Part shown: piece by piece, positions 5,599 to 5,726 of the stretch
Layout: the number at the start of each line of letters is the position of its first letter
Numbering within the stretch: the stretch's first letter is position 1
IMG/VR virus record: IMGVR_UViG_2617270964_000016
Span: 1 to 37,320 of that record
Length of the DNA stretch: 37,320 nt
Reading direction: 5' to 3' (one strand)
DNA from: a virus
Taxonomy: Duplodnaviria > Heunggongvirae > Uroviricota > Caudoviricetes
The notes under the pieces: generated by a model
What the model was told of the DNA's origin: nothing
Database searches by the model: none
The model's input: the letters and a program-made list of their open reading frames with translations, nothing else
Position numbers and translations under genes: made by a program

Positions 5599-5726
5599 TT
5601 CGTTCTCCACTTTATATGCGCTGCACCGCGCTGAATTCGGGTAAAAGGAATCCCGCACCATCCGGCGATTATTGAGTTAATTACGTTTCCATAAATGCCC
5701 CCGCAGGGGCATTTGCAGTAATGAAA

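Follow-up and report, generated by a model that had tools for sequence, protein, structure and literature searches.

A perfect stem-loop after yfdQ flags an undescribed, widespread structured RNA leader in N-less lambdoid prophages

The DNA analyzed here, hereafter the window, is a stretch of 37,320 nucleotides (nt) (IMG/VR virus record IMGVR_UViG_2617270964_000016, positions 1 to 37,320) and represents a lambdoid prophage of the SfV/SfIV/mEp460/cdtI/Stx2c type. Its leftward early operon carries a perfect stem-loop, H1, in the gap between a yfdQ-like gene and a yfdR-like gene. H1 is ordinary in kind but flags an undescribed and widespread structured RNA leader in N-less lambdoid prophages, being the 5'-most of three stem-loops in a conserved cassette of ~113 nt. 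The cassette runs, in order, through H1, an NUGAARCGWAA motif, an A/U-rich linker, H2, a GGGNUUCGUGCAACCAAAAU segment, and H3 to a Shine-Dalgarno sequence (SD; GGAGAA) and a start codon. We consider it about an even call that H1 is the boundary hairpin of a cis-acting structured leader, serving as a folding insulator, an exonuclease barrier, and at most a pause site or weak terminator. The features on which the argument rests are as follows.

5609..5720, minus strand: whole cassette, matched by covariance model R1 at 88.7 bits (E 9e-21); single copy in the window
5693..5714, minus strand: H1, cassette stem-loop 1, with 9 base pairs (bp; 5 of them G-C) and a UNCG-type tetraloop
5679..5692, minus strand: single-stranded motif directly 3' of H1, AUGGAAACGUAAUU; family consensus N-U-G-A-A-R-C-G-W-A-A
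5655..5668, minus strand: H2, UCGCC-GGAU-GGUGC, here 5 bp with a G·U pair and a terminal mismatch, and a 4-nt loop
5632..5654, minus strand: core segment, GGGAUUCCUUUUACCCGAAUUCA; family consensus GGGNUUCGUGCAACCAAAAUUCA; the most conserved block
5616..5631, minus strand: H3, a GC stem with an invariant GUGCAG hexaloop, 6 to 20 nt upstream of the SD
5596..5610, minus strand: SD (GUGGAGAAC) and ATG (5598-5596) of the yfdR-like HD 5'-deoxynucleotidase gene
5727..6551, minus strand: yfdQ-like (DUF2303) gene, its stop 12 nt upstream of H1

A covarying leader cassette

The open reading frame (ORF) listed for the HD gene with the initial annotation of this DNA starts at 5661 (199 amino acids [aa]); it is over-extended and takes in H2, the core, and H3. 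Translation truly begins at the ATG at 5598 (MSFIKTF, SD GGAGA; 178 aa), matching the K-12 yfdR annotation, and the noncoding gap is therefore 5599-5726 (128 nt). A similar artefact, a 167-aa GTG ORF that spans the cassette, is found at locus L290. Within the gap, plus-strand positions 5693-5714 read AAATGCCCC-CGCA-GGGGCATTT, a perfect 9-bp stem with a 4-nt loop, so that the operon-sense RNA of the minus strand is AAAUGCCCC-UGCG-GGGGCAUUU. The annotation's description of this stem-loop held in sequence and coordinates, as did its distance from the yfdQ-like gene, with H1 beginning exactly 12 nt 3' of the UGA stop (5729-5727; coding sequence 5727..6551, minus strand), and the absence of a flanking U-tract, the mRNA-strand sequence 3' of the stem being AUGGAAACGUAAUU.

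The folding energy of H1 is -15 to -16.5 kcal/mol. The energy calculation that had been proposed as a check gave -16.5 kcal/mol in a 38-nt context (z = -3.45), with none of 200 shuffles folding equally well, and the minimum free energy and centroid folds of the entire gap both retain H1. The window contains six distinct perfect hairpins (at least 9 bp, 3- to 8-nt loop), or nine in a raw count that includes nested registers, versus 1.04 +/- 1.26 in 200 dinucleotide shuffles of the window, and the chance expectation of a perfect hairpin of at least 9 bp inside the 128-nt gap is ~0.4%. One such hairpin anywhere in the window is unremarkable, and the hairpin alone does not exclude chance. H1 is more than chance because it is conserved with compensatory changes.

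Sampling anchored on YfdR gave 80 near-identical viral loci plus another 80 drawn from different species. In 35/35 distinct Enterobacterales yfdQ-yfdR junctions, the yfdQ stop is soon followed by a stable hairpin (-10.8 to -19.4 kcal/mol). Its stem has at least 12 different sequences (e.g., AAAUGCCCC, UAAUUGCCCU(GC), AAAUCCCCG, UAAUAGCCCCCG, UAAGUGCCCU, and CAAAUACCCCA) and measures 9 to 12 bp in all variants. A structure-blind MAFFT alignment of 30 sequences had 92.7% paired cells versus 84.4% when shuffled (0/500) and 40 to 51% in slid controls, a covariation score of 0.285 versus 0.129 when shuffled (0/500), and compensatory change in 4 of 10 H1 pairs. Covariance model R1 has 113 positions and 20 pairs, and its alignment holds 63 distinct Enterobacterales phage and prophage sequences. 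This alignment, which was fitted to the model and is hence biased towards the modeled structure, reached 95.3% paired cells versus 79.9% when shuffled and a covariation score of 0.367 versus 0.105, with double (compensatory) changes in 18 of the 20 pairs, including all 10 modeled H1 pairs. RNAalifold independently recovered H1, H2, and H3.

The strand can be read from the pairing itself. Read in the sense orientation, the stems often have G·U pairs (e.g., GU 15 and UG 13 at two H1 pairs), and since each would be an A·C mismatch on the other strand, the structure belongs to the minus, sense-strand RNA. Four-fold degenerate sites of yfdQ and yfdR show 32 to 40% identity between the window and ST64B or phiNP, that is, saturation, which indicates that the conserved intergenic blocks are selected. 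The earlier proposal of a functional RNA-level element on the leftward, operon-sense strand is supported. An antisense terminator on the plus strand, fed from the promoter-like sequence at 5534-5561, was rejected, as the plus strand has no U-tract and the G·U pattern is sense specific. A yfdR promoter within the gap was likewise rejected, no acceptable -35/-10 pair being found by eye or by scan.

Spacing and sequence are closely kept along the cassette. The motif after H1 has AA in 56/56 sequences and CG in 53-54/56; the linker from H1 to H2 is 23 to 24 nt long in 46/56 and the spacer from H2 to H3 is 23 nt in 40/56. Loops are 4 nt in H2 (50/56) and 6 nt in H3 (48/56), and that of H1 ranges from 3 to 9 nt. 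H2 covaries (UCGCC/GGCGA, UCACC/GGUGA, and UUGCC/GGCAA), the closing pairs of H3 are GC (37), UA (8), AU (7), and CG (7), and an SD lies immediately downstream of the cassette in all cases. Strong purifying selection acts on the cassette as a single unit of fixed geometry. H1, taken at first for a stand-alone element of the yfdQ/HD junction, is instead the first of three hairpins at fixed spacing.

Two further structures were considered for the same stretch. A mini-ORF, AUG GAA ACG UAA (5681-5692, minus strand), lies directly 3' of H1 and is probably not translated by design. Small ORFs through the cassette, whether this one, GUG or UUG ORFs of other lineages, or a read-through or frameshift of yfdQ, were rejected because their starts, frames, and stops are unconserved and their frames are broken by loop and spacer indels. 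An outer helix around H2 (AAUUCC/GGGAUU), which some lineages could form, was discarded as well, for its register shifts, it is absent in the E. coli lineage, and RNAalifold did not recover it.

Termination and the role of H1

One rival reading makes H1 mainly a leaky intrinsic terminator or attenuator, in which GCCCC-UGCG-GGGGC followed by AUUUAUGG would let some of the polymerases go after yfdQ and so lower expression of yfdR, the Ea22-like genes, xis, and int; we regard this as improbable. H1 does have the GC-rich stem of ~5 to 14 bp and the loop of 3 to 8 nt (here 4 nt) that characterize terminators, and every lineage has a lower stem rich in A on its 5' side and in U on its 3' side. However, a conserved U-tract directly 3' of the stem is lacking in H1 and its homologues, and the sequence kept there is the purine-rich GAARCG instead of uridines. 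U-tails were scored with a d'Aubenton-Carafa-type weighting, the window lineage being represented by a K-12-type row (L086), which scored 0.94 after the full stem (AUGGAAAC) and 1.71 after the GC core (AUUUAUGG). The 33 H1-type variants scored 0.5 to 3.2, versus 3.1 to 4.2 for canonical terminators of the window and 4.5 for an H0-type hairpin at locus L108, the 34th row; the tail was weak in 33 of the 34 hairpins scored. A consensus terminator scan of the window did not call H1. Leaky termination would, moreover, have no need for fixed spacing to H2 and H3, and phages without N must read through to xis and int. Weak U-tails in 33/34 hairpin variants speak against termination as the selected function, and in our view H1 is no more than a weak terminator or pause, with termination not being what selection preserves.

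Intrinsic (Rho-independent) terminators inside lambdoid early operons, such as the tL type of lambda, share with H1 a GC-rich stem-loop between early genes on the pL transcript, and some relatives hold canonical terminators at the equivalent position. The cassette differs in the absence of a U-tract (33/34), the purine-rich 3' motif, the fixed spacing, and the lack of N. After yfdQ, the GC hairpin of a Pseudomonas phage lacks a U-tract, and no noteworthy hairpin is present in Stx phage PA2.

Under the boundary-hairpin reading, H1 would form as soon as it has been cleared by RNA polymerase and by the ribosome that terminates 12 nt upstream, at the yfdQ stop. It would then keep upstream RNA from interfering with how the H2-core-H3 translation-initiation leader folds and, after cleavage in the A/U-rich linker, would stop 3'->5' exonucleases. 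H2, the core, and H3 are probably a binding platform for a factor that sets translation of the downstream gene, and the cassette lies directly before the first block of tightly packed early genes, a block that here begins with the yfdR-like HD gene. H1 itself may cause at most pausing or weak, leaky termination; N-less phages such as these must transcribe on to xis and int. The hairpin had originally been suggested to be a stability or processing element or a partial attenuator. The most economical mechanism is still one in which H1 attenuates weakly or serves as a barrier in mRNA stability or processing; it is termination as the selected function that the U-tails argue against.

Several points weigh against the boundary-hairpin reading, in addition to the bias of the R1 alignment given above. 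The annotators of phage Ayreon labeled the same hairpin a terminator, and canonical U-tract terminators follow yfdQ in Morganella, Providencia, and Vibrio phage VvAW1; together with L108, these also favor the leaky terminator, and termination may be ancestral or one part of the function. In the Term-seq supplement of Adams et al. (2021), no 3' end appears near K-12 positions 2474869-2474900, a negative that is uninformative because CPS-53 is probably barely expressed there. Finally, neither the inferred barrier role nor the inferred bound factor accounts for the invariance of NUGAARCGWAA and of the GUGCAG loop.

In VvAW1, a distant phage that carries yfdQ (L287 16-228 and 2023-2058), the canonical terminator reads GCCCGGC-CAUGC-GCCGGGC-UUUUGUU and lies 9 nt before the next gene, and the same operon also has a gene for a CsrA-like RNA-binding regulator (COG1551).

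The cassette with and without yfdQ

The exact 22-mer of H1 was located only in the yfdQ-yfdR context (80/80 loci). A scan with the core motif also returned 80 loci, of which 45 have neither yfdQ upstream nor yfdR downstream, and many of these 45 keep an H1-type hairpin, H2, and H3 straight after the pL leader. In many of the phages without these two neighbors, the pL leader end (UUGUGGAGAAnCUnAC) and a further hairpin, H0, adjoin an H1-type hairpin (e.g., UAAGUGCCCUGGUUGGGUGCUUA), after which CUAAAACGAA, H2, the core, and H3 lead up to the SD of an early gene, Ea22-like or other. In the window, H0 lies at the corresponding place, and yfdP and yfdQ sit between it and H1.

7000..7015, minus strand: H0, CGACC-UUGCAG-GGUCG, at the pL leader end; preceded by a conserved UUGUGGAGAAACCAAC

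SfII (L002, 2780-2830) is without yfdP-yfdQ, and its deletion joint falls inside an H0/H1 hybrid hairpin, CCGCCCC-UACG-GGGGGC. This hybrid joint indicates that recombination between H0 and H1 created or removed the yfdPQ module. Some other module swaps put unrelated hairpins in place of H2 and keep the core. The cassette travels with the downstream leader, not with yfdQ, and is not a yfdQ 3' element. Setting the ratio of upstream to downstream expression (yfdQ to HD gene), which had been put forward as the purpose of the hairpin, does not hold as a general purpose, for the cassette also fronts genes that have no upstream cistron.

The loci L307, L326, L331, L335, L357, and L360 (IMG/VR) have an 84-aa gene (MNHLEFIEKNVRE...) between the core and H3. 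AAUUCAGCG is duplicated on both sides of this insertion, and a DnaA-box-like TTATCCAC lies upstream of the inserted gene.

Intercistronic hairpins that stabilize mRNA include the repetitive extragenic palindromic (REP) sequences in malE-malF and the C(UNCG)G hairpins of T4. H1 resembles them in being a very stable C(UGCG)G hairpin 3' of a cistron with an A/U-rich single strand after it. It differs in that its tetraloop is unconserved (3 to 9 nt), in that it occurs without an upstream cistron, and in that it is one module of a larger RNA. An intercistronic 3' stabilizer would be tied to the 3' end of the upstream coding sequence, whereas H1-type hairpins occur without yfdQ.

It is very unlikely that H1 is a feature of the DNA itself (a protein-binding palindrome, a mosaic linker, a REP-like or miniature inverted-repeat transposable element [MITE]-like sequence, or a plus-strand terminator) or has no function. 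Mosaic joints do occur in or next to the hairpins, as in the SfII H0/H1 hybrid and the swaps around H2 and H3; the hairpin also has near symmetry, and in ST64B-type phages H1 is bordered by a direct repeat, AAGCGTAATT. However, the many G·U pairs that accompany the compensatory changes occur solely in the sense orientation, and a palindrome bound by a dimer could not accommodate a loop that varies from 3 to 9 nt. The exact sequence, present once in the window, never occurs outside the yfdQ-yfdR context, and the plus strand is without a U-tract or a conserved promoter or gene. A dispersed REP, bacterial interspersed mosaic element (BIME), or MITE-like palindrome was rejected on the same confinement of the 22-mer and its single window copy.

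The flanking repeat is 10 nt long and was seen in ST64B, phiNP, and Eeyore (L003 1795-1845, L004, and L005). The yfdQ stop codon falls within one copy, the other copy being the conserved motif after the hairpin, and in ST64B-type phages the left arm of H1 resembles the stop-site sequence (TAATTGCTCTGC versus TAATTGCCCTGC). An old duplication or insertion could have left this repeat behind.

Known RNA systems and the early-left operon

Searches against known RNAs were negative. Rfam 15 had no match across 5599-5726 at E<=10 and none over the cassette in five related loci at E<=1; we found no literature record of a small RNA (sRNA) or RNA 3' end at the H1 locus, and a full-text search with the cassette sequences returned nothing. 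The R1 scan of the window gave no second copy and none in the pR operon, and R1 scans of the HK022 immunity region, PA2, VvAW1, and pAN gave nothing. Among other candidates, the ECS009/RyeG sRNA lies elsewhere in CPS-53, the Pas/STnc100 sRNAs belong to a different locus type, and a weak Rfam STnc310 match at 5520-5561 lies inside yfdR and is noise (E 0.98).

With the nut sites of lambda and P22, H3 shares a covarying 5-bp GC stem (GCGCU...AGCGC in many phages), an invariant loop, and location in the pL operon. The cassette differs in having no N gene, no adjacent boxA, and no nutR-like second copy, in the H3 loop being GUGCAG and not a GNRA-like pentaloop, and in lying ~1.9 kb from pL; in the window, there is no N ORF between pL and yfdP, no boxA next to H3, and one copy of the cassette only. 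HK022 put consists of two long stem-loops, ~70 nt, at both pL and pR (PMC9378689). A protein-independent structured RNA in an N-less lambdoid early operon would serve the same need as put, whereas the cassette is single copy, lies 1.9 kb from pL, and has no R1 or BLAST match to put; a BLAST comparison of the pL leaders with the HK022 pL/put region showed no similarity. Homology to put or nut was rejected on these grounds. Processing by RNase III would call for a near-continuous duplex of ~20 bp or more, and H1 stems measure 9 to 12 bp.

H1 might also be a recognition element of a factor-bound regulatory RNA, an operator or antitermination-type RNA of a new sort, that controls translation or processivity in the early-left operon, a reading that we find doubtful. 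Here H1 would join the GAARCG motif, H2, the core, and H3 in binding a phage or host protein, RNA polymerase, or the ribosome. It is favored by the fixed spacing, the invariant single-stranded motifs and H3 hexaloop, and the covarying stems, a pattern like that of boxB, as well as by the constant position of the cassette just upstream of an SD, the lack of N in these phages, and the lack of matches to known families. However, no candidate binding partner was identified, there is one copy per phage with none in the pR operon, and R1 was negative in HK022. The loop and stem sequences of H1 vary freely, which argues that H1 is not read sequence specifically. As for CsrA, GGGAUU and UGGAGA lie ~45 to 50 nt apart in most sequences, but the upstream GGA is replaced by GGGCUU in the K-12 lineage and by GGGUUU in Phytobacter. 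The motif comparison thus weakens a CsrA-bound leader, the upstream GGA not being conserved.

In the region around the cassette, a canonical terminator (7654..7637) comes after a cI-like gene (7666..8340, minus strand), and next is a pL-like promoter (7627..7600). Then come ~600 nt in which no sense-strand ORF reaches 40 aa, and yfdP, yfdQ, the gap, and yfdR, with the cassette ~1.9 kb from pL. Overlapping Ea22-like and other small genes lie downstream of yfdR, and in related phages the early-left operon reaches xis and int. SfV/mEp460-type phages have been reported to be without N, cII, and cIII (PMC3851460). No N ORF was found between pL and yfdP of the window, and Stx2a_WGPS2 has no annotated N and a 780-nt empty stretch after cI. 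The CPS-53 prophage of E. coli K-12 has an identical hairpin (NC_000913.3 2474869-2474890).

6978..7593, minus strand: conserved, apparently noncoding leader of ~600 nt, between the pL-like promoter (7600-7627) and yfdP

A leader of ~600 to 780 nt with no conserved ORF is also present at L412 5166-5943, L290 8865-9372, and L003 3091-3568. Blocks common to the leaders of divergent N-less phages are GGUAGCCGGAAUGUGCAAG, CCAGCGUGGCG, CGUUGUGG, CUUUUUACAnAAC, and UUGUGGAGAAnCnnAC, plus hairpin H0, and the pL stretch may be a large functional leader RNA. Window positions 7110-7126 (minus strand) hold CGCUCUUUUUACAAAAC, a boxA-like sequence (GCUCUUUA..ACAA) that is conserved in position and less boxA-like in L290 and ST64B (CGCCCCUUUUACACAAC and CGACCUUUUUACACAAC). 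Sub-threshold matches to Rfam STnc100 (35 bits; gathering 47) fall inside the pL leaders of ST64B (L003 3317-3435, minus strand) and a Buttiauxella prophage (L092 427-542, plus strand), with none listed for the window leader. At L290 8871-9065, in a phage type without yfdP-yfdQ, a 64-aa Arg-rich GTG ORF lies right after pL; it overlaps conserved leader blocks, its window copy is interrupted by a stop, and it is probably not a conserved gene.

A broader suggestion, which we make only tentatively, is that in the cassette N-less lambdoid phages have a cis-regulatory RNA of an undescribed class, one that would be a protein-independent counterpart of nut/N or of put. The members of this class would be the SfV/SfII/SfIV, ST64B, mEp460, cdtI, and Stx2c phages and CPS-53. 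RNA polymerase, the ribosome, or a host factor would bind the cassette and govern early-left read-through or translation, including that of xis and int, and the cassette may work together with the conserved ~600-nt noncoding pL leader.

In sum, model strains (E. coli K-12 CPS-53 and Salmonella ST64B) carry the element that H1 flags, as do Stx- and serotype-converting phages without N. The K-12 sequence is identical, making the element directly testable there, and the cassette would be a new family for RNA databases. It is placed where early-left transcription and translation must be controlled, ahead of a DnaA-binding deoxynucleoside monophosphate phosphatase, Ea22-like genes, xis, and int. 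Its function could explain N-independent early-left regulation in a large lambdoid group.
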